A stretch of DNA of 62,845 nucleotides, filler included, from Atractiella rhizophila (GCA_021432655.1; 3 parts of 3 records of this genome joined end to end with filler, not necessarily neighbours in it), one strand, 5' to 3'; positions 7,328 through 62,537 are shown, counted from the whole stretch's first letter. A program made the numbers and translations. Notes: generated from the letters alone by a model not told the origin.

Positions 7328-10612
<3,285 letters not shown>

Positions 10613-14395: not shown

Positions 14396-17300
14396 TTATG
14401 GCGCCATCATCATGGCGTCCGCATTTTCCTCTTCGATTGTGTCCAAAATGGCTTTGATAATTCTTCCACCTTCCTCAGCTAAATAAGACGAGTTTCAGCA
14501 TTACATGCTAGAGCGAAAGAAGGATAGACAGACCAATTTCCCATCGGCTATCCTTGATAAGCTCCCAGATGGTGTGCAACAATCCAGCAATACCATTCAA
14601 GTCGTCCATTTGTGGGAGAACTAAAACCGAAGGTGAGGAGATTCTCTTGGTTCGTTAATAAACTCACTGTCGGGAGATTGTGTGCACAAGGCATCGAGGT
14701 ACGCCATCGCTTCCTCCGTTGGACGACCCCTACCAGGACGTGGGGGACCGGATATTGAAGTGCCTGCACAACAAGCATGACACGGGGTCAGTCATGAATT
14801 AGGACGCAACCCCACGTGAACTGCGAGGCGTTGCTGGGGGAGGGACGACTGACTATATGCATATAACGTCAAGGTTGAGATGTACATTGACCAGTTGAAG
14901 TGGACGCAGGAAGAGAGGTCCGATGGACTCTGGTTTCTGTGCAAAAGCGTGGACCTGCATTCCCACACCAAAATTTAGGCTGTAATTCGGATAAACCAAA
15001 GGCGACCATATATACCGTAAGAAATGAGCAGAGTGCCATGTTGCCTGCCTGCCCTCTTTTGTTGAAGACCAAGAGAAAATCCTCGTCTTTGTAGCCTCCA
15101 CGACAGCCGGGGCAACAGCGAGACCCAGAGCTCTTTCCGCACCCTGTCCCATTCAGCGCCTTCAATTGATGGGGTCAGCAGCCTGGCAGTTTGCTTACAG
15201 CCCAAATTTGGAGTTCGTGGACGTCAACTCCTTGGACTATGTGGGCGATCGCATACATCGATATCGAGCTCCGGAGAAGCTGCGAGTCGGGATACTTCGA
15301 GTTGATCAGACTGGTATCTAGTCGGGCTTTCCAACAGTTATACGCTGCAGACATCATCTCGCGCCAATCTTTTGTTGGCCCGTCTGGTGTTGCAATTCCA
15401 AGCTGTAAGATTCAATCTTCAGCAAAGATCTTTTGGGAAGAAAAGGGGGAAAGACCATAAAGTGATCTCGCCATTGCACTGTCAGGAGATACTGTTAGAG
15501 CCATTCCAGTGTTGAAGATGGACAGCGCACTATCGAACGAGACACTCATCTATTCACCATGGTTAGTTCTGTCCAGGATGCATTGGAGAGGAACTCACAA
15601 GTCCATGCAGGATCAAAATCCTCGAGAACGCATTCAGAACCGGCGGAGAATGCCCGGGAATCATGGATGCCTTGAGTGCTACAGGTAAACAGTTATCGCA
15701 CAGTCGTTTTTGATCTCTGCTGTAACGAGAGAGCGTACGTACCAGAGATGAACGGTAGTGGTGGGCGAGCAGCATGATGCCTCCTATTCCACTCACTAAC
15801 TGATGTGGCCGTCCACACGCTCTCATCAGAGGGCAGGGTGAGCTGAAGCTGGAATGCTGAGAGCGTGGGAGTGTGACGAAAGATGGCGGCGTGCTCTACG
15901 TCAATTAGAAAAGCCGAGAAGGCACATCGTTTTGCTGATTCTTCTGCGATCCATGCTCCTGGATGTCATTCGTCAACAATCGGATTGATGCATCAGTAAT
16001 GAACCAAGGGAGACTCACTCCATCTTGCATCAGCTTTGTCTTTGTGATTGTCAATCTCTGCAACTGATTTGGGAGAGAACAGCGCGCTCCTGCGTGCTAG
16101 CTGTATATTGCAACTCCATCTTGCATCAGCTTTGTCTTTGTGATTGTCAATCTCTGCAACTGATTTGGGAGAGAACAGCGCGCTCCTGCGTGCTAGCTGT
16201 ATATTGCGTTCAACTGGAAATCCTGTGTTTAAATGCGAATCATACCGTCACTACGGATCCCCAGAAAATATGACTCTTTAGATGGTGGTTAGTCAGTATT
16301 GTTCAAACGGCAGTGAAGAAGGGGGAGACCATTTCATGCGCCCTTCGATCGGAGCACATCTTCCCAAATATGATACAGAGTAAAACAGCCTGGAAAAGCC
16401 ACATTTCTGCCCGTGGCACGTAATGTTCCGACTGTTCATCAACATTATTAGTTGAATACAATACAAAGGAATAGAAATTCGAACGCAGATGATCATGCCT
16501 CGCAATTTTTCATGCACAATCTTCGCCATCGTGTGCGCCTCCAGATCGGCATAATAACATCCAAAGAGGAACATGGAGCATAATAGCGGCGTCGGCGTTG
16601 TTTCCGTCCTGCATTATTTAAATCTGCCTAGGGTAGCGCGTGCAATATAATGACGCACCTGAATGTTGCTTTGTGGATGATCGGGAATTGAGTTTCATGC
16701 ACGCGAGTCCAATAGAGGTGCAGGTAGAGTTGAATAGATTGTGGAGTTAGTTTCGGATGGTTGATGACCATTGGGATACTCGGCTTCGATGATTTCTGAT
16801 CAGCTCTTCGATAGAGAAGGAGGCAATGAACTTACAGAGAGATAATCAATGATCCTCTGAAAAGTGATTTGATCCACAAACGTGGTCGGGTCCTCTCTCT
16901 TCAGCGGCGCGTCGTCCTATTTCACATTCAACATCACTCCCATCTCTTCAAGCGATGAACGTACTGGAACAGGTTCCATCATGTATGGTAAACAAGGTGA
17001 GCTCTTATTGCTCGCATTGCTTCCCTCTCCAACGCTAGGTGGTGTATTTGTATTCTTCATGCCCATCGAAGGATCGAACATGTTAGGCGGCATCTGGAAA
17101 TTCTCCAATATCCGCGCGGCATTCGGATTGGACGGGTCGTTCATGTCGCCAATACCATCCAGAAGCCATTGAAGGTCGATAGCAGAGGCAAATGGTGCTT
17201 CACATCCATTAGATGAGCATGTAACGCAAAGGATGGAGTATCATGAGAAGAAAGATGAAAGACGACGTACCATCGTTGTGCCCTCCGAAGGAGAAAGGGT

Positions 17301-18398: not shown

Positions 18399-20907
18399 CC
18401 TACATATTCTATTATCCTCGCAATCAACCAGTTCACTTGCACGAAGGAGTGGTAATGATTGAGTGCTTCCGCGGCGCTGATCGGGATTCATGGATTCTTT
18501 TCTTCGCTTTCACCTGATTTCCTCGTCACAAGTGCAGTTCACATGCTGGCAGACGTCAGCTTGATCTGAACCGTCCTGTTCTTTAGATGTACATACCCAC
18601 GTCTTTGGATGCGTTTCCATCTGACAGCAGGTGGAGCCTTTCACTTTTCGAACGCTGCATCCGTTCCGAACTTCATCTGTGCTGATACACCTATACCGCA
18701 TACCTGGGCGATGAGAAGGCTCCGCGGCCGGCTATTATGCGCGTTGAACGAAGGAAAGTCGTTGACGCTCAGGAGCTCGTTCCTTCTGTAACATGGTGTA
18801 GGAAGAAGGACTTACGCACACCAGCAGAGCAAAGAAACCGGTTTCGATCACCTTTTCTCCTCTCTCGATTCGTTCGAGACCGTAACTCCTCCCGTTACGT
18901 TGCCAAACTTCTGCCATAATGAAGATTTTGGAAAGGCAGCAAGCCGTCGCATCCCAAGTTGAAGTTCCATTTTCTTCGTGTCCTGCTTGATTCCGTCTGG
19001 CAGCTCCTCTGTGGATGACTGTCCTTCGATTCGACGGTCGAGTAAACATGACGAGACAGGACAGAAGTGAACTAGAAAGGATGATTTTCCATTTCCTAGG
19101 TGTACGTGGAAAAGGGGATAGGGAGAAAGGTGATCGAGTTGGCTATTCCCAAATGTCTAGAACCTACACTTGGACTACCACCCCGCTTGGTCTCAGCCTG
19201 AAGGGGAAATAACGGCATAGATCACACAACTGTCCTCACACCGTGGTCTGATGGCGGAATGTTTTGAAGAGACCGATTTGGATTCTTTTCACATCTCCTT
19301 GTTCTACTTTTCTAAAGGCTCGGAGGCACTACTAGTCATTGATAGGAGAATATGGAATGAGTTGGAATGAGGATGGTGGATGGATATGCAGGCTTGAGAT
19401 GGAAGTTCAGGAGTTCAGGCGCGCCGCGCGCGGAATCAGGAGTGCATTTCTTCAGTTAGTTGTGATGATCTGTGTGAAGATTGCGCTGGTCATTGCGTAT
19501 GATGATGAATGAACTGAACATCATTGAATCGCTGATTGAATCGATAACGATTTTTAGCATTTCTATTTGTGTTTTCCTTTCCTTTCCTCTCGTTATGAGA
19601 CTGGCTTTGAAATTGAGGTATTCTCTTTGTTATTGTTGACTCCTCTCTCGCTCTTTACGTAGACTTCCACCGCACTCGCGCAAACACCTGACCTACATAT
19701 TCTATTATCCTCGCAATCAACCAGTTCACTTGCACGAAGGAGTGGTAATGATTGAGTGCTTCCGCGGCGCTGATCGGGATTCTTTTCTCTGCTTTCACCT
19801 GATTTCCTCGTCACTAGTGCAGTTCACATGCTGGCAGACGTCAGCTTGATTTGGAACGTCCTGTTCTTTAGATGTACATACCCACGTCTTTGGATGCGTT
19901 TCCATCTGACAGCAGGTGAAGCCTTTCACTTTTCGAACGCTGCATCCGGTCCGAACTTCATCTGTTCATCTGTGCTGGTACACCTATACCGCATACCTGG
20001 GCGATGAGAAGGCTGCGTCGAACGAAGGAAAGTGGTTGACCTCGTTCCTTCTGTAACATGGTGTTGGGGGACGTACCCCCACCAGCATAGCAAAGAAACC
20101 GGTTTCGATCACCTTTTCTCCTCTCTCAATTCGTTCGAGACCGTAACTCCTCTCATCACGGTGTTGTCAGATCACAACTTGAAGTTCCATTTTTCTTCAT
20201 GTCCTGCTTGATTCCGTCTCTGCAACTAGCAGCTGCTCATGACTGTCCTTCGATTCGACGACGGTTGAGTAAACATGAAGAGACAAGACAGAAACAAACG
20301 CGAAAGGATGATTTTCCACCTCCTAGGTCTCCATGGAAGAGGGGATGGATAGACGATGATCGAGTTGGTTATTCTCGAATGTCTAGAACCCATACTTGGA
20401 CTACCACCCGCTTGGTCTCAGCCTGAAGGGGAAATAACGGCATAGATCATACGACTGTCCTCACACCATGGTCTGATGCGTATGCGCGGAATGTTTTGAA
20501 GGGACCGATTTGGATTCTTTTTACATCTCCTTGTTCTACTTTTCTAAAGGCTCAGAGGCACTACTAGCCATTGATAGGAGAATATGGAATGAGCTGGAAT
20601 GAGGATGGTGGATGGATATGCAGGCTTAAGATGGAAGTTCAGGAGTTCAGGCGCGCCGCGCGCGGAATCATGAGTCCATTTCTTCAGTTAGTTGTGATGA
20701 TCTGTGTGAAGATTGCGCTGGTCATTGAGTACGATGATGAATGAACTGAACATCACTGAATCGATAACGATTTTTAGCATTTCTATTTGTGTTTTCCTTT
20801 CCTTTCCTCACGTTGTGAGACTGGCTTTGAAATTGAGGTATTCTCTTTGTTATTGTTGACTCCTCTCTCGCTCTTTACGTAGACTTCCACCGCACTCGCG
20901 CAAACAC
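18399..20907. repeat. Head-to-tail tandem repeat, ~1.29-kb unit, at least 2 diverged copies, running into a gap
   Basis: CCTACATATTCTATT… starts at 18399 and 19692. Both copies end …CGCGCAAACAC (19687, 20907), and they differ by substitutions and indels. Confidence 0.95.
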
Positions 20908-21742
20908 NNNNNNNNNNNNNNNNNNNNNNNNNNNNNNNNNNNNNNNNNNNNNNNNNNNNNNNNNNNNNNNNNNNNNNNNNNNNNNNNNNNNNNNNNNNNN
21001 NNNNNNNNNNNNNNNNNNNNNNNNNNNNNNNNNNNNNNNNNNNNNNNNNNNNNNNNNNNNNNNNNNNNNNNNNNNNNNNNNNNNNNNNNNNNNNNNNNNN
21101 NNNNNNNNNNNNNNNNNNNNNNNNNNNNNNNNNNNNNNNNNNNNNNNNNNNNNNNNNNNNNNNNNNNNNNNNNNNNNNNNNNNNNNNNNNNNNNNNNNNN
21201 NNNNNNNNNNNNNNNNNNNNNNNNNNNNNNNNNNNNNNNNNNNNNNNNNNNNNNNNNNNNNNNNNNNNNNNNNNNNNNNNNNNNNNNNNNNNNNNNNNNN
21301 NNNNNNNNNNNNNNNNNNNNNNNNNNNNNNNNNNNNNNNNNNNNNNNNNNNNNNNNNNNNNNNNNNNNNNNNNNNNNNNNNNNNNNNNNNNNNNNNNNNN
21401 NNNNNNNNNNNNNNNNNNNNNNNNNNNNNNNNNNNNNNNNNNNNNNNNNNNNNNNNNNNNNNNNNNNNNNNNNNNNNNNNNNNNNNNNNNNNNNNNNNNN
21501 NNNNNNNNNNNNNNNNNNNNNNNNNNNNNNNNNNNNNNNNNNNNNNNNNNNNNNNNNNNNNNNNNNNNNNNNNNNNNNNNNNNNNNNNNNNNNNNNNNNN
21601 NNNNNNNNNNNNNNNNNNNNNNNNNNNNNNNNNNNNNNNNNNNNNNNNNNNNNNNNNNNNNNNNNNNNNNNNNNNNNNNNNNNNNNNNNNNNNNNNNNNN
21701 NNNNNNNNNNNNNNNNNNNNNNNNNNNNNNNNNNNNNNNNNN
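20908..21742. other. Assembly gap (N run)
   Basis: Continuous Ns. Confidence 1.
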
Positions 21743-22703
21743 ATGGCACATTCAAAACGGTTCCTTCTTGTCCGATCACTTGTGCCTTCGTGCACCCATC
21801 ATTCTTTATTGTTTAGCAGTGGTACGTCAACCTGCTCCGCTCTTTCGATCAAGCGGAACGTTCTACAAGTTGGGAAGTGCCCCAGATTTCCTGTCTTTCG
21901 GCGAGAAGTTGTCGCTTGATCGCTATCGCCATTCCTCCCTAATGCAAATCAGATTGATTGTTTCGTCTCACGGGAGGCATTGTACTTGTTCTCCCTTGCC
22001 CCTTGACAACGTTCTTGTGGCTTGACATCCCTTGGCGCATCTGAGATACAATCGACCAAAGCGTGCGAATGGAGATCTCGCAAGATTGCTTTGGAAAGCC
22101 CATGGCACCCACGATTCAGATACTCAGAAACCACGCTTAGCTCATGCGAGCATTCATGATCGTCCAGTGTCTGTTTGTCGCTTCTGGACCTGTCGTGCCG
22201 ATTCTGAAGCACCTTCAAAGGCGTTGAACCGAGCTGGATTCCATGTTTCTGGAACTGTGACGACAACCAGAGTTTAGAAACGGCAAGATAACCTTACACA
22301 AGACCTGTCAAGATCGTCCAATCGCAATTCGCCATCTTAACACCTCCTATTCGCTCAACTTCTACGGCACAAAAGTTTCCGAGCGTTCGTCCAGGTTCGG
22401 GCTCTCATCCATAAAAAGGGAGATGTCGTCCTCTTTCTTCACAGTGAAATCTGTAACCGATGGAGAGAAATAACGAGCAATACGATTGTTTTGCGAGGAA
22501 TGATTATTGTGAGTTCTTTGTCACTGTTCCTTTGCTTTCGAAAGAATCATGGCTGACGAAAGAGTAATCAGGGTCAGATACCGCTCTTCCCGTTCAATCA
22601 TTTCCACAGTGGGCAGCCACGCCTTGCGTTCCGCTTTTGAATCAACAATTTGCAACTCACGCATCAACTTTTGAGGACGTGGTCAATTTGGCTTCCACCC
22701 CCG

Positions 22704-45941: not shown

Positions 45942-46966
45942 AGTTGTGATTGCTGGTGCGTAAGAAAGCAGGGACAGCTAAAGTCGTCGTTCGTGGTTCT
46001 GGACACGGTGACACTGCTTTGTGAGTCATATACTGTTCGATTTCACTCCGTCAGACGCATATTGTAATGGTTACAACTATTTCATTAAATCATAAGGATG
46101 ATACGTAGACACCTATGGGTCTAGAACGAATGTACTCAAGGTTGCTTACTCATGGACAAAGGCTGGTTTGAGCTGGTGCTGCTGCATTTGAAGGATTTGA
46201 GGATGATAGTAAATGAAATTGTCAGTTATTCTTCTGTGTGTCCATCCCAGCAATAGCCTTTGTCTTCTTACAGTTGCTGAAGCCGTTTACGGTATCGTCT
46301 AAATGCCAGTGGGCGAAAGACGAAGCTTAGCGATTTAGAAATGTTATAATTATACGGCTTCTTAGCAACTCTTTCACGGAAGCAAATCCTGCAGCGATTT
46401 CAAAGCTTGCTATCTATGCGTGATGTTGTCTTTAGATTAAACAGTCTAGCATCTTTAACTAAGAAAGATGAGAGCTCTTGATAGCACCTTGCTCCTGTTT
46501 TATGTCTGACTCGACAAGTCACATATGAGTGGCTAACCTGGTAGTCAAAATGGTTACAGAAACTCGAAGTTTGATATTGACACGCCCATGATCTTTTGAC
46601 GATCAGCACCTTGCAAGCTTTCAGCCTTGTTTCAGCGCAAATTCACCTGTCAATGGCCTTAGCTTCTACGCACAGACATCTTCGAAATTGAGGCCGAGCA
46701 CGAAGGCAGAATACTTACCCGTTGATGCAATATGATAAATTCGAAAAAGATTCAGTCAATAAAAGCCCAGAAAACAAAGTTCTGGTCCTAGTCCAACGCA
46801 CGTGAGTAAGTCACTGAGTCGCGCGGTGATCACCAAAACTCATCAACCAACCGCTCTCCCAAGCTCACTCAGAGCTCTCCATTCAACGCTCTTTGATCGC
46901 ATCCTTTCTTTGCCACCAAGTCTCCAACCCAAGAACACATTCCCTGCACACCCATCAAGCCAACGC

Positions 46967-49497
46967 ATGACCTTCTTGAAGGAAATGGCACCAGAGGGCG
47001 GTCAGATGAGTAGCAGCACCTTGCTAGACATGAATTTGGGTCTCTCTTTCTTCGTTCCGGAAACTTCCAATCCACACTCTCATTTTCTCTACGAGCTTTC
47101 AGTCTTGGCCAACGTTCCGTATTCTGCTGAACCCGGGTCTCTCATGGACACTTGCTACAAGGGTCTCATAGAGGTGGCGGAAAGGGACGGCGTGGACGTG
47201 AACGAGGCCAAAACGACGCATTTCTTTGATACCTTTGACAAACTTTGGAAACCTTTCTCCAGTCTGAATCAGAAAGACTTCGCGGATGCTGTACTTCCCT
47301 CTCTACCTTACAAGTTTGTAGACGTTCTCTCTGACCCTTCAGACGCCTCCAAGTTTGAGGACAACGTTTATTCCCCACTCCACGTCGAGGAGCAAGCAGA
47401 ACACATCCTAACCTTTGTGGCTCGCAGAACCGGCACGCCGCGCACCTCGAAGTTTCGCCCCCAACTCATATCGCGAGCCATTGACATGTGGTGCTACGTC
47501 CTCAGATCAGGCCTCCCCCTCCGAGAATTCACTCGAATCTACGCCTACAATAAATTTGCCGGAGAATGGGTCCATCTCGTCAACGTCATGTCCTGGCAAG
47601 ACACCACCGACTGCCTGTTCTACAGCAGCTCTCGCTGGCGCCAGAAACCCCACGAAAGAGTCAACTTTAGACCACCAGCGGCGGAAACAGCTCAAGTAGG
47701 ATGGACGGAATTGGGCATGCCAGTATTCTACACCTGGCATACACCGGAAGAGCTGGGCTTGGAAGTAAAGAGGGAAGCGATGGAAGATGCAAGACGGGAA
47801 GAAGAGAGGGAGGAGGAACTGGAGGAGGAACAGCAGAACTCAGTAGAAGCAATCCAATACGTCCTCGAAGCCACCGAACCGGAAGAATTCAACCGTCGCA
47901 TCGAGGAGCGGAACCTATCGGCGCAACAGATCCAAGTCCTACGCATCTCCTTCGACAAGAACTACCGGAGGATTCAGAAGGGGAAGGGGAGGCAAGAAGA
48001 GCCATCCCTATCCTCCCATCACTTCACCAATGCCGGACTCACATACAGGCCATTCTCCGTGGTGAGACCGCAGGGCGGGTCGGCGGGCCCCCACACTGGG
48101 GGGGGTCTTCGCAACGACGCCTTTAACCAGTAAGCAGCTCCACGTGGTGGGAGTGCCTCTACTAAGGTGTGACGGCTATAGTACCGTACAACCTGTCGGA
48201 AACCCTCTTATTAGGGAGGGACCTCTCAACATCCCTATAACATCGTGAGCAGCTCCACGTGGTGGGAGTGCCTCTACTAAGGTGTGACGGCTATAATACC
48301 GTACAACCTGTCGGAAACCCTCTTATTAGGGAGGGACCTCTCAACATCCCTATAACATCGTGAGCAGCTCCACGTGGTGGGAGTGCCCGTACTAAGACGT
48401 GAGGGTTGCAGTGCAGTACACCCGATCACAAACCCTCACACTGGGGGAGAATTACTCACCTTCCCCCCAAACTCAGCTGCACAAATGACAGCGAACCCTT
48501 TTCCTAGCGAAAGGTTCCACAACAGCGCTCCACCACCACCACCAAGAACCCCCCATAGCTGGGGAGGCCCCCTCCCAGCCACCCTTAAGTCCACCTGGCA
48601 TCCCCAAGAAGGGACTGCAGTTAACCGCCTCCGAACACAGCTACCAGGAGCTAACGCTGGCCAGGGAAACCTTCAGAACCCCACACCCGTCAACCCACCA
48701 AATCACCAAGACCTGGGACAACAACAGCCCCGGGGTGGGTGGGGAGACACGGCACTACCCACGCAACCCATACAGCCCCTGCTGTCGCCGCACGCCCCGA
48801 TCAGGGGATTCCCCGCAAGCTTCGTGCAAGCAGCGGGCACCATCCCACCTTTCGCGAATCCCGGCAACACCCCCCCAACCAGAGCCCAATTTCTCCACGC
48901 CTACCAGAACTTCGCTCAAGCCAACCCCCCCGGTATAGGTCCAGAAGCGCCTCATCCGGCGAAGGGGCGACAGACACACCCACATGCCCCCCCCTCAGCC
49001 AGCGCGACCGCCCAGCCGCAGGAGCAGCCGGGGCACGCTCTGGGCCACGGTGGAAGAACGAGAGAAACTATAGACCAGCCAGAAGCAATGGCTTCGAAGG
49101 GAAAGCCCACAGCAAGGAGGAAGCATCGAGCTCCTGACTCCTCTTCTAGTGGGGATGACGGGGAAGGGAGGAAAAGACGACGGAAGAAGAGGAGAAAGAG
49201 CACACGGCACGCCAGCCGAGGACCAGACGCATCAGACCACTCCTCTAACTCAGACGCATCAACAGAGTCAGAGCGTTCGCGCCAGAAGAGACTAATCAAG
49301 GAGGCAAAATCTCAGAAAGACTGGAAGTATTCCGTCATCAACAAGAAATCCATTCCCACCATCCAAGTCGATTTCGACGTACCGGAGCTCAAAAAGAAAA
49401 TACACGAGAACCCACACGCCTACATCCCTGCCCACTTACCAACGGCGTGGAAACAACTCTCCGCAGAGTACGGGCTGGACGAGTCAAAGGAAATCAA
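46967..49497 (+). CDS. Element-encoded protein of unknown function, copy 1 (spliced ORF1+ORF2; possibly gag-like)
   Basis: First ATG common to both copies is 46967. Removing 48130-48181 and 48245-48411 joins the 443-aa and 391-aa ORFs in frame. Contains an acidic coiled segment, a Pro-rich region and a basic RKRRRKKRRK stretch. Confidence 0.7.
48130..48411 (+). repeat. 115-bp intron+exon tandem module (three intron copies, two exon copies)
   Basis: GT(A/G)AGCAGCTCCACGTGGTGGGAGTGCC starts at 48130, 48245 and 48360. Confidence 0.92.
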
Positions 49498-49597
49498 NNN
49501 NNNNNNNNNNNNNNNNNNNNNNNNNNNNNNNNNNNNNNNNNTTAATTAATTAANNNNNNNNNNNNNNNNNNNNNNNNNNNNNNNNNNNNNNNNNNNN
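49498..49597. other. Assembly gap with TTAATTAATTAA spacer
   Basis: N run with the same spacer as at 22748. Confidence 0.95.
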
Positions 49598-49649
49598 ATC
49601 AGCGCTATCACCTCGTCTGATGTTCGATGTTGAATCTCTGCTCTCCAGC

Positions 49650-51671: not shown

Positions 51672-51860
51672 GGTTGGTTGATGAGTACTGGTGATCACCG
51701 CGCGACTCAGTGACTTACTCACGTGCGTTGGACTAGGACCAGAATGAAGTCCGTAGGATATCCGAAATTACACTTCTGAGCACCTCTCACAAAAGGCTTT
51801 CGTGAACTTTAGTCAAGATTCACATCCGTTGGATTAGGACCAGAATTTGCTCCTGGGCTT
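51672..51860 (-). mobile_element. Terminal relic of the 46758/60143 element (two tandem terminal motifs)
   Basis: 51672-51744 is the near-exact reverse complement of TTCTGGTCCTAGTCCAACGCACGTGAGTAAG…CAACCAACC. A diverged AAGCCCAG…TTCTGGTCCTAATCCAACG lies at ~51827-51860. Confidence 0.85.
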
Positions 51861-57951: not shown

Positions 57952-58671
57952 ATCAGACCAATGAGATAATGGATAATAATTGTACGCAAAATAATCAGCA
58001 CCAGACATGAGATTGACGATTAGTTACGTCTTCAATTGCCGTCCCTCTGTTGTGAGGGCTTACTGTGGCGGCTGTTCCTCAGGCTGTTCCTCCTTTCCTG
58101 CTCCTACGCGCCATGCGTCACATCGGATTGAACCACGCACTGAACCATGCGGAGATCCACATCCACAAAAGAATTTTTTGAGAAATCCGGCAGACCCGTC
58201 GCCCAGGGGTCGGCGATAAAACTGGTCGACCAGTTTTGACCTGCTTTTTGGCTGCAAATTTTCTCAAAATTGAAGCCCAAAACCATTTTTCGCTTTACGC
58301 AAACCCCTGGGGGCGACCAGTTTGCCCGCTTTCTACCCGTCAACCAACCTGAGGGGCCAGGGTACGTAACGGCCCCTCAGGCATCCTCCCTTGCCGCAGG
58401 TCATTGTGCGAAGAAACATTTCCACCAAGCCGCTTTCACCAGGACGCTTTAGAAGGTGCATTTGCGAGTCAAGAACAAGAGAGAGCGAAACAAGGTAAGT
58501 ATTCTTGTGATGTACGGGTGCGAGAAGCTGGTGGCGGCTGGTAATAGATGGGTGCTGATTGATCTCGATTGCCCAGCGCGAGGGATCACACCGTATCTTC
58601 ATCTGTTGTGATAAAAATCATCCCATCGATCAGCTCCATACCCGTCAGCGAAGATCACGTCACTCGCGGTC

Positions 58672-59187
58672 ATGTCGAGATCATCTCCTGAGCACCTGCT
58701 GCATACTTTACCATCCGAAGAAGACCCTCTCCTCAGGAGGGAGAACGTGGTCCTTAGGGAACGAGTGGACGTTCTTGAGAATAAAGTCGTCATTCTCAAC
58801 GCTGAAGTCGTCACCCTCAAGAAGATTAATTCTCAACTCAACGCTGAAGTCGTCACCGTCAAGAAGATTAATTCTCAACTCAACGCTGAAGTCGTCACCC
58901 TCACTGGGAGAATGGAGAACATGGAGCGGCAATTGCAACTAGTCTTTCAACGGACGAACGCCGATCAAGCAGCAGGTGTGAAAACCTTGTCTCGCAGCGG
59001 GGAAAGTGAGAGGGGTCTCTCAAGCCATCATTCTCACTTGGGATCACACCATGGCTCTCACCCATCTTCCCTCGTGCCAACAGAGCCGGTCCCCGAATCC
59101 CGCGATGCTCCTCCAGGCACATCTATCGAGCATATTATTCTTAGTAACGCAATGAGCAATCTTTCCTTCAATCGTCAAGATGGATAA
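58672..59187 (+). CDS. Hypothetical coiled-coil protein with 14-aa tandem repeat
   Basis: 171-aa ORF with heptad-phased LNAEVVTLKKINSQ repeats. Confidence 0.4.
   Translation: MSRSSPEHLLHTLPSEEDPLLRRENVVLRERVDVLENKVVILNAEVVTLKKINSQLNAEVVTVKKINSQLNAEVVTLTGRMENMERQLQLVFQRTNADQAAGVKTLSRSGESERGLSSHHSHLGSHHGSHPSSLVPTEPVPESRDAPPGTSIEHIILSNAMSNLSFNRQDG
58795..58903 (+). repeat. 42-bp tandem repeat, ~2.6 copies
   Basis: CTCAACGCTGAAGTCGTCACC at 58795, 58837 and 58879. Confidence 0.95.
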
Positions 59188-60142: not shown

Positions 60143-62516
60143 TATAAAAGCCCAGAAACCAAAATTCTGGTCCTAGTCCAATGCACGTGAGTAAGTCACT
60201 GAGTCGCGCCGTGATCACCAACACTCATCAACCAACCGCTCTCCCAAGCTCTCCCAGAGCTCTCCTTTCAACTCTCTTCGACCGCATCCTCTCTTTGCCA
60301 CCAACTCCCCAACCCGAGAACACATTCTCTAACTGCAGCCACACCCACCAAAGCCAACGCATGACCTTCTTGAAGGAAATGGCACCAGAAGGCGGTCAGA
60401 TGAGTAGCAACACCTTGCTAGACATGAATTTGGGTCTCTCTTTCTTTGTTCCGGAGACTTCCAATCCACACACTCTTTTTCTTTATGAACTTTCAGTCTT
60501 GGCCAACGTTCCGTATTCTGCTGAACCCGGGTCTCTCATGGACACTTGTCACAAGGGTCTCATAGAGGTGGCAGAAAGGGACGGCGTGGACGTGAACGCG
60601 GCCAAAACGACGCATTTCTTTGATACCTTCGACAAACTTTGGAAACCTTTCTCCAGTCTGAATCAGAAAGACTTCGCAGACGCCGTACTTCCATCTCTGC
60701 CTTACAAGTTTGTAGACGTTCTCTCTGACCCTTCGGACGCTTCCAAGTTTGGGGACAACGTTTATTCCCCACTCCACATCGAGGAGCAAGCAGAACATAT
60801 CCTAACCTTTGTGGCTCGCAGAACCGGCACGCCACGCACCTCGAAGTTCCGCACCCAACTCATATCGCGAGCCATTGACATGTGGTGCTACGTCCTCAGA
60901 TCAGGCCTCCCCCTCCGTGAATTCACTCGAATCTATGCCTACAACAAATTCGCTGGTGAATGGGTCCTTCTCGCCAACGTCATGGCCTGGCAGGACACCA
61001 CCGACTGCCTGTTCTACAGCAGCTCCCGTTGGCGCCAGAGACCCCACGAAAGAGTTAACTTTAGACCACCAGCGGCGGAAACGGCTCAAGTAGGATGGAC
61101 GGAATTGGGTATGCCAGTATTCTACACCTGGCATACACCAGAAGAACTGGGCCTGGAAGTAAAGAGGGAAGCGATGGAAGATGCAAGACGGGAAGAAGAG
61201 AGGGAGGAGGAACTGGAAGAGGAACAGCAGAATGCAGTAGAAGCAATCCAATACGTCCTCGAAGCAACCGAACCGGAAGAATTCAACCGTCGCATCGAGG
61301 AGCGCAACTTATCTGCGCAACAGATCCAAGCCCTGCGCATCTCATTCGACAAGAACTACCGGAGGATTCAGAAGGGGAAGGGGAGGCAAGAGGAGCCAAC
61401 CCTACCCTCCCATCAACTCTCCAATGCCGGACTCAGATACAGGCCATTCTCCGTGGCGAGACCGCAGGGCGGGTCGGCGGGCCCCCACACTGGGGGCGGC
61501 CTTCGCAACGACACCTTTATCCAGTAAGCAGCTCCACGTGGTGGGAGTGCCTCTACTAAGGTGTGACGGCTATAGTACCGTACAACCTGTCGGGAACCCT
61601 TATATTAGGGAGGGATCTCTCAACATCCATACAACATCGTGAGCAGCTCCACATGGTGGGAGTGCCCGTACTAAGGCACGAGGGTTGCAGTGCCGTATAC
61701 CCAATCACAAAACCCCACACTGGGGGAGAATTCCTCAACTTACCCCCAAACTCTGCTGCACAAACGACGGCAAATCCTCTCCCTGGAGAAAGGTTCCACG
61801 ACAGCGCTCCACCACCATCAACTAGAACCCCACACAACTGGGGAGGCCCCCTCCCAACCACCATTAAGTCTAACTGGCGCCCCCAAGAAGGGACCGCAGT
61901 AAATCGGCTCAGAACCCAGGCACCAGGAGCCAACGCTGACCAGGGAAACCACCAGAACCCCACACCCGTCAACCCACCAAATCACCAAAACCCGGGACAC
62001 CAACTGCCTGGGGGTGGGTGGGGAGACACAGCATTACCCACGCAGCCCCTACAGCCCTTGCTGTCGCCGCATGCCCCCATCAGAGGATTCCCCGCAAGCT
62101 TTGTGCAAGCAGCGGGCACCATCCCACCTTTCGCAAATCCCGGCAATACCCCCCCAACCCGGGCCCAATTTCTCCACGCCTACCAGAACTTCGCACAAGC
62201 CAACCCCCCCGGCATAGGTCCAGAAACACCCCATCCGGCGAAGGGACGACAGACGCAGCCACATGACCCCCCTTCAGCCAGCGCGACTGCCCAGCCACAG
62301 GAGCAGCAAGGACACCCTGTGGGCGACTGCGGAAGAACGAGAAAAATTATAGACCAGCCAGAAGCAACGGCGTTGAAGGGAAAGCCCGCAGCAAGGAGAA
62401 AGCATCGCGCTCCTGATTCCCACTCTAGCGGGGATGAAGCGGAAGGGAGAAAAAGACGACGGAAGAAGAGGAGAAAGAACATACGGCACACCAGCCGCGG
62501 ACCAGATGCATCAGAT
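60143..62516 (+). mobile_element. Dispersed repeat element, copy 2 (similarity to copy 1 ends at ~62516)
   Basis: Collinear with 46758-49236, then similarity stops abruptly after GCATCAGA. Confidence 0.7.
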
Positions 62517-62537
62517 CGAGACCGGGCAAGCTACTAG
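60361..62537 (+). CDS. Element-encoded protein, copy 2 (spliced; C-terminally truncated)
   Basis: ATG at 60361. Removing 52-nt introns 61524-61575 and 61639-61690 joins both ORFs in frame. Confidence 0.65.

Follow-up and report, generated by a model that had tools for sequence, protein, structure and literature searches.

We could show that two open reading frames (ORFs), each present twice in a stretch of nuclear DNA from the fungus Atractiella rhizophila (GCA_021432655.1), are both under purifying selection in exactly those frames that are joined when the short intron-like units between them are removed. In the best explanation of this locus, to which as a whole we assign a probability of about 0.8, the units are ordinary short U2-type spliceosomal introns of a fungal gene, the mature messenger RNA (mRNA) joins exon 1 (ORF1), an exon of 63 nucleotides (nt) and exon 3 (ORF2) and encodes one protein of more than 760 residues, and the gene, judged by its sequence, belongs to a species-restricted, multi-copy orphan family. 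The window, by which we mean the whole analysed stretch of 62,845 nt, carries the gene in two copies of a repeat unit of 2.4–2.7 kilobases (kb) located at 46760–49497 (copy 1) and 60144–62515 (copy 2), both on the plus strand, and also contains protein kinase, DUF6534 and PLAC8 genes.

In copy 1 the coding part of exon 1, starting from the first conserved ATG of ORF1, extends over 46985–48129 and corresponds to the annotated protein P0007 with 100% identity over 236 amino acids. It is followed by intron I1a (48130–48181, 52 nt, GTAAGC..TACTAAG..AG, phase 2) and exon E1a (48182–48244, 63 nt, 21 codons, TVQPVGNPLIREGPLNIPITS). Then come I1b (48245–48296), a chimeric 52-nt intron copy that is identical to I1a at 50 of 52 positions and ends with AA, without an AG acceptor, the duplicated exon copy E1b (48297–48359), identical to E1a at 63 of 63 positions and probably intronic in copy 1, and intron I1c (48360–48411, 52 nt, GTGAGC..TACTAAG..AG). 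The coding part of exon 3 with ORF2 (48412–49497) shows 86% identity to the annotated P0009 over 361 amino acids and is cut by an assembly gap. Copy 2 consists of intron I2a (61524–61575, 52 nt, identical to I1a at 52 of 52 positions), exon E2a (61576–61638, 63 nt, TVQPVGNPYIREGSLNIHTTS) and intron I2c (61639–61690, 52 nt, identical to I1c at 48 of 52 positions), all of these units in both copies being read directly; the extra intron and exon copies are found in copy 1 only. All units on both copies lie on the plus strand and start with the donor GTAAGC or GTGAGC, four of the five possess GT..AG ends (GT..AA in I1b), and TACTAAG is invariant in all five of them, 16 nt before the 3' end. A branch point with the consensus CTRAY is typical near the 3' end of an intron and TACTAAG fits it. 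Also the intron size is ordinary here, as the frame of the kinase gene in the window is open only once GT..AG introns of 55 and 63 nt are taken out. Tandem Repeats Finder detected a period of 115 base pairs (bp) with 2.3 copies and 97% matches at 48133–48396. The stop codon of ORF1 lies inside the GTAAGC donor, as had been noticed in the preliminary description of this DNA, with TAA being bases 2–4 of the donor and CA/T (H) being the junction codon after removal of the intron. No special design is needed for this TAA or for the TGA of the exon at the same donor bases, because both follow from phase-2 introns with the donor consensus.

After removal of the units in silico, copy 1 showed no stop codon from ORF1 up to the assembly gap, and the frame of copy 2 was open from ORF1 through both junctions to the ORF2 stop at 62535–62537, while I1b, when left in, brought 13 stops. 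The proposal that 52-nt GT..CTAAG..AG introns and a 63-nt phase-2 exon fuse ORF1 to ORF2 in both copies, for which the exon peptides had been quoted exactly, is therefore borne out by the units as read directly. Between the copies the ratio of nonsynonymous to synonymous substitution rates (dN/dS) is 0.13 for ORF1, with 44 of the 68 differences at third positions, and 0.24 for ORF2 in the frame set by splicing, with 58 of 102 differences at third positions; the alternative frames gave 1.0–1.66 and contained stops. No insertion or deletion was found between the copies in 1145 + 825 coding nt (94% and 88% identity, respectively). Moreover, the 24 codons upstream of the first ATG of ORF2 are conserved and carry on a peptide repeat that begins in ORF1. 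These conserved codons, the missing insertions and deletions and the purifying selection in both frames all argue against a model without any splicing. Under such a model ORF1 and ORF2 would encode distinct products or belong to a decayed gene, and any apparent exon joints would reflect diverged paralogues, breaks in the alignment or DNA copies that lack introns. This model finds some backing in the public annotation, where the ORFs are modelled as separate genes.

Exon joints were indeed present in public contigs. From the 16 runs holding part of the stretch, the contigs of four (X1, X3, X4 and X7) were aligned at 85% likeness, and those with a small share (X2, X5, X6 and X8–X16) were left out. 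In X4 the match of a 177-nt contig (record 21) stops at 48129 and is directly followed by TACCGTAC, with which E1a starts (8 letters), and in X3 a paralogue (record 12) shows exon 1 joined to the 63-nt exon in the same way. A second contig of X4 (record 22, 225 nt, 0 differences) starts at 48412 with 0 other letters. X3 contains the joint 48244>48412 (GT..AG, one contig, depth 46) and the joint 48359>48412 (GT..AG, one contig, depth 87, side 64), the latter in the 667-nt record of a paralogue in which the upstream exon is also joined to the 63-nt exon. All three joints coincide exactly with the predicted GT..AG ends and leave 0 letters ambiguous, which, like the eight exon letters directly after 48129 in X4, is not expected if nothing is spliced. 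X4 has no contig cover over the introns, although uncovered parts of X4 and X7 were not counted as evidence. X1, which we guess to be DNA, covers the introns without any of these joints, and X3 has one contig running through I1a besides the spliced contigs. Among the annotated models of other copies P0004 (..TTPST/IPYNL..) uses the I_a sites and P0009 (..TTS/AVYP..) the I_c sites; P0009 removes I_c and retains I_a, the latter in a frame other than that of ORF1. As the joints come from assembled contigs, strand, level and the ratio of spliced to unspliced molecules are unreadable from them.

Several points weigh against the reading as spliced introns of one long gene. The kind of run is not on record, and that the X3 and X4 contigs are RNA is what we infer; the joints themselves carry the tool flag 'between: not known'. 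Some contigs of X3 enter at 46761 and 46762 from unlike flanks, which would fit DNA or read-through transcripts, and if X3 is DNA its joints are intronless copies, implying past splicing but not current expression. None of the contigs is specific to a 167-nt intron of copy 1 (see below), and neither the annotation nor the databases have a protein that covers both ORF1 and ORF2, the only three matches among 1.84 billion representatives all being fragments. Even so, we regard the absence of any splicing as very unlikely and favour ordinary short spliceosomal introns.

The two introns of the older pair are alike at 41–43 of 52 positions, and the earlier count of 41 of 52 for I2a and I2c is exact. 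Likewise, the 63-nt exon and the next exon are alike at 37–39 of 63 positions, with the likeness reaching approximately 31 nt into the upstream exon, and self-BLAST pairs 48099–48322 with 48214–48437 at 87%. On the protein level V.P..NPHTGG.L.N can be read three times across the units. Because the flanking exons are paralogous too, intron and exon have been copied together, and an ancestral unit of one peptide-repeat exon and one intron would have been duplicated in tandem within the gene. The paralogous exons on either side, together with a fresh 115-bp re-duplication in copy 1 described below, agree well with the intron gain by tandem duplication that the preliminary description had suggested. 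In repeat-containing proteins tandem exon duplication is well known, mostly from animals with long introns, where a symmetric exon encoding one repeat is multiplied with its flanking intron and matching phases keep the frame. The same holds here for a symmetric peptide-repeat exon and its intron, but the whole module comprises only 115 bp.

Sequence comparison thereby supports an assignment of these introns to same gene duplication (SGD) by segmental duplication, a route already described in fungi (Collemare, van der Burgt and de Wit 2013, PMC3609843). In that study 82 SGD introns from 24 fungal species are described, half of them being segmental duplications with duplicated exon flanks that resemble ordinary introns in length and folding energy. 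Compared with what is given there, our introns share the near-identity within one gene, the co-duplicated exon sequence on either side and the ordinary length and folding energy. They differ in that the older pair has diverged much less than its exons (27 of 28 positions in the 5' half versus 39 of 63), in that a second, very recent round with a dead acceptor occurred in one copy, and in that the host gene itself is a dispersed multi-copy unit. In the AGGT model (PMC4974935) a new intron arises from duplicated exon sequence. Common to both cases would be a tandem duplication over intron and exon sequence that raises the intron number, with splice signals inherited from the parent; in contrast to that model, whole existing introns seem to have been copied here along with a whole symmetric exon, none being built from an exonic AGGT, and in copy 1 the effect is reversed as the duplicated exon was likely swallowed into a longer intron.

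We also considered that the 52-nt unit might be an introner-like mobile intron inserted twice into the gene, for which near-identical intron copies with a conserved core would speak and which had been raised before as introner-like behaviour. The introner-like elements of Dothideomycetes are described as exceeding regular introns in length, as having stable predicted structures and as numbering in the hundreds (PMC3609843), and they occur in many unrelated genes (PMC3609843; PMC4457414). Multiple near-identical spliceosomal introns are thus common to both, but our introns differ by being 52 nt long, not longer than regular introns of this genome, by showing no stable fold and by being seen only in this gene family within the sequence available. 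A search with the 25-nt core of the introns (up to 3 mismatches) yielded five matches in the 62.8-kb window, each lying within one of the two gene copies, where 100 shuffles led to an expectation of 0, and no metagenome contig matched the core pattern. In addition, the co-duplicated adjoining exons are a mark of segmental duplication. On the evidence of the window and the metagenome contigs insertion of a mobile intron is hardly credible, and segmental duplication within the gene remains the supported origin.

The second round of duplication is confined to copy 1. Here a very recent 115-bp duplication most likely doubled the exon and added one more intron copy, which is the third and is chimeric. 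I1b has a G at position 3 as in I1c, corresponds to I1a at positions 29–51 and has A as its last base. From this chimera pattern it follows that the duplication breakpoints are within positions 4–29, inside the 25-nt stretch common to both introns. Unequal exchange or slippage between the two intron cores could have been the mechanism, and as the pattern is such as this exchange would give, we infer a homology-driven unequal exchange. This is not proven, as 23% of random breakpoints would be expected within the 26-nt core interval. Only a single base, the changed acceptor G, separates the duplicate from its parents, and the chance that a lone change falls on the AG is 2/115. As this one later change removed the AG of I1b, E1b is most likely skipped within a 167-nt intron, which would restore the ancestral mRNA. 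The single second intron of the preliminary description is correct for copy 2, whereas in copy 1 there are three intron-like and two exon-like units, so that the second intron is either 167 nt long (48245–48411), as the junction 48244/48412 given earlier would allow, or uses another acceptor. We consider the 167-nt intron the most likely choice. Other outcomes that keep the frame are a cryptic AG 33 nt into E1b, leading to an 85-nt intron of the same phase, and skipping of the whole module. The X3 joint 48244>48412 fits the 167-nt intron but fits equally a copy with a single exon.

What sets these introns apart is a 25-nt stretch at positions 4–28 that is invariant in both paralogous introns and contains the palindrome CCACGTGG. 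Of the 104 intron sites compared between the two gene copies 4 are different, against a difference of 0.217 at synonymous sites (binomial P=2.9e-7), and the excess conservation persists when 16 signal bases per intron are excluded (P=1.7e-4). Against three neighbouring exon pieces (100/104 versus 171/189 matches) the difference is not significant (P=0.10). In the 63-nt exon 4 of 21 residues are changed between the copies. Comparing the paralogous units with each other, positions 1–28 of the introns match at 27/28 and 26/28 in contrast to 39/63 and 37/63 for the exons (Fisher P=3e-4 and 1e-3). The simplest way to account for this conservation is that a splicing signal is under selection. The hairpin-like core proposed earlier did not hold up, as the z-scores of the five intron units were +0.39, +0.30, -2.34, +0.39 and -0.82 (200 shuffles each) and a stable fold was not better than chance; three of the five units folded no better than their shuffles and the signal was weak for the others. 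No Rfam family was matched in 47900–48700 at expectation values (E) up to 1, and when the core was compared with the remaining pre-mRNA for possible pairing, the longest match was 8 nt, against a shuffle mean of 7.97.

Such a conserved stretch could also mean that splicing is regulated, with the core tuning it in such a way that unspliced transcripts give the short ORF1 product and spliced ones the fusion, in place of frameshifting or readthrough. Being compatible with our best explanation, this idea draws on the low divergence of the introns, also without the signal bases, and on the match of their positions 1–28 relative to the exons, as well as on X3, where a contig crosses I1a while others are spliced, and on the P0009 model keeping I_a and removing I_c. 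However, the stop at bases 2–4 is automatic for any phase-2 GTAAG or GTGAG donor, the contigs yield no ratio and X3 may contain DNA, and P0009 may be a prediction artefact because its I_a is read in a frame other than that of ORF1. Furthermore, the core is explained neither by a stable fold nor by an Rfam match or complementarity above chance, and ORF2 carries no enzyme domain that would make a ratio as between gag and pol meaningful. We see a retention switch as an unlikely addition to ordinary splicing. A more specific version, in which selection maintains the core as a cis-element governing the frequency of intron removal and hence the ratio of ORF1 to the ORF1–ORF2 fusion, and in which the core also acts as recombination substrate for the exon module, appears to us quite improbable.

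With regard to the identity of the gene family, no Pfam family was found for ORF1, ORF2, P0003 or P0009 at E up to 0.1–1, and PDB sequences gave no match below E 0.08 for ORF1, ORF2 and their annotated relatives. The best hit in the ESM Atlas (score 0.87, low recognition, a bacterial DUF3114 cluster) was treated as noise. A structure prediction for ORF1 from eight near-identical rows reached a mean predicted local distance difference test (pLDDT) of 40 and a predicted template modelling score (pTM) of 0.21 and was too poor for a fold search. Besides the three fragments matching ORF1 one relative of ORF2 was found, and all relatives of both ORFs are listed as 'hypothetical protein' of Atractiella rhizophila, with two cluster members being identical to the copies of the window itself. 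A search of metagenome contigs with the ORF1 protein led to 590 pattern matches but no relative. Among the papers listed for the Atractiella rhizophila genome none has a title or opening part of its abstract that points to work on this family. In the public annotation the locus (46985–49497; 60379–62537) is divided among three models, with 236, 133 and 533 residues, and a fused model is missing.

The repeat unit carrying the gene is dispersed in the genome. Self-BLAST pairs 46759–49236 with 60144–62515, showing 93% identity over ORF1 and 88.5% over ORF2, and the likeness of copy 2 to copy 1 stops at 62515, shortly before its stop codon. Run X1 has 208 contigs on the stretch, of which 109 are at ≥99%, 49 at 95–99%, 27 at 90–95% and 23 below 90% identity, and four X1 contigs depart at 46760 into unlike flanks; from this spread and these flanks we conclude that the unit is dispersed and multi-copy. 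Its 5' edge at 46760 is sharp and adjoins the TATA-like AATAAAAG. Neither copy includes the 3' end, as copy 2 is truncated and copy 1 is cut after 49497 by an assembly spacer (49498–49598, N runs around TTAATTAATTAA). This spacer is artificial, and the DNA beyond 49598 is not necessarily contiguous with copy 1. The 100 residues at the C-terminus of the relative P0009 were not found in the window DNA after the spacer.

The dispersed, multi-copy nature of the unit, its sharp 5' edge at 46760 with differing flanks and its two-ORF layout might suggest a retroelement whose introns survive retrotransposition. Yet reverse transcriptase, integrase, protease and gag families are all missing from ORF1, ORF2, P0003 and P0009, with the part beyond the gap being unseen, the 3' end is visible in neither copy and the relatives are confined to one species. 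The retroelement identity considered in the preliminary description finds no counterpart in Pfam, in PDB sequences or in any other family, and we judge it highly improbable.

A further acceptor at 46957, where contigs of X3, X4 and X7 all begin, was rejected. The loose letters of these contigs match copy 2 at 60324–60350 with 2 mismatches, so the position marks a stretch that is variable between paralogues and not a splice site. At the 5' end of both copies a 73-nt stretch (46780–46852 and 60164–60237, plus strand) recurs inverted at 51672–51744 on the minus strand with 95–97% identity; this recurrence near 51.7 kb has unrelated sequence on either side. CACGTG is present in the 73-nt stretch, and its first 20 nt are found again, in weaker form, near 51828. 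The stretch may represent a promoter or a terminal piece that is shared.

Elsewhere in the window, the kinase gene is of the NDR/Dbf2-like type (Pkinase + Pkinase_C, 7861–10612), with putative GT..AG introns at 9492–9546 (55 nt) and 9875–9937 (63 nt). Tandem duplications are present at 18399–19687 and 19692–20907 (1.3 kb, 85.5% identity), running into a region with 27% guanine plus cytosine and long open frames in all six frames (20001–22000), and at 16017–16111 and 16113–16207 (95 bp, 100% identical). A 42-bp tandem repeat with 2.6 copies and 97% matches (58795–58903) lies within the open frame 58615–59187, to which no family was assigned.

In summary, apart from the unusually conserved intronic stretch, this locus follows a known and ordinary route to extra introns and does not constitute a new category. 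It provides a small and clean example of how the intron number grows when an intron is copied together with its exon, with one old round and another so fresh that only one base has changed. For the orphan multi-copy family the gene model is corrected to one long protein instead of three short ones. As the introns are better kept than the silent sites and the exon they flank, the 25-nt stretch is a concrete candidate for splicing control. Should it indeed have this function, a mobile, species-specific two-ORF unit would control its product ratio by splicing and not by recoding, and the same core would allow the exon module to expand and contract.

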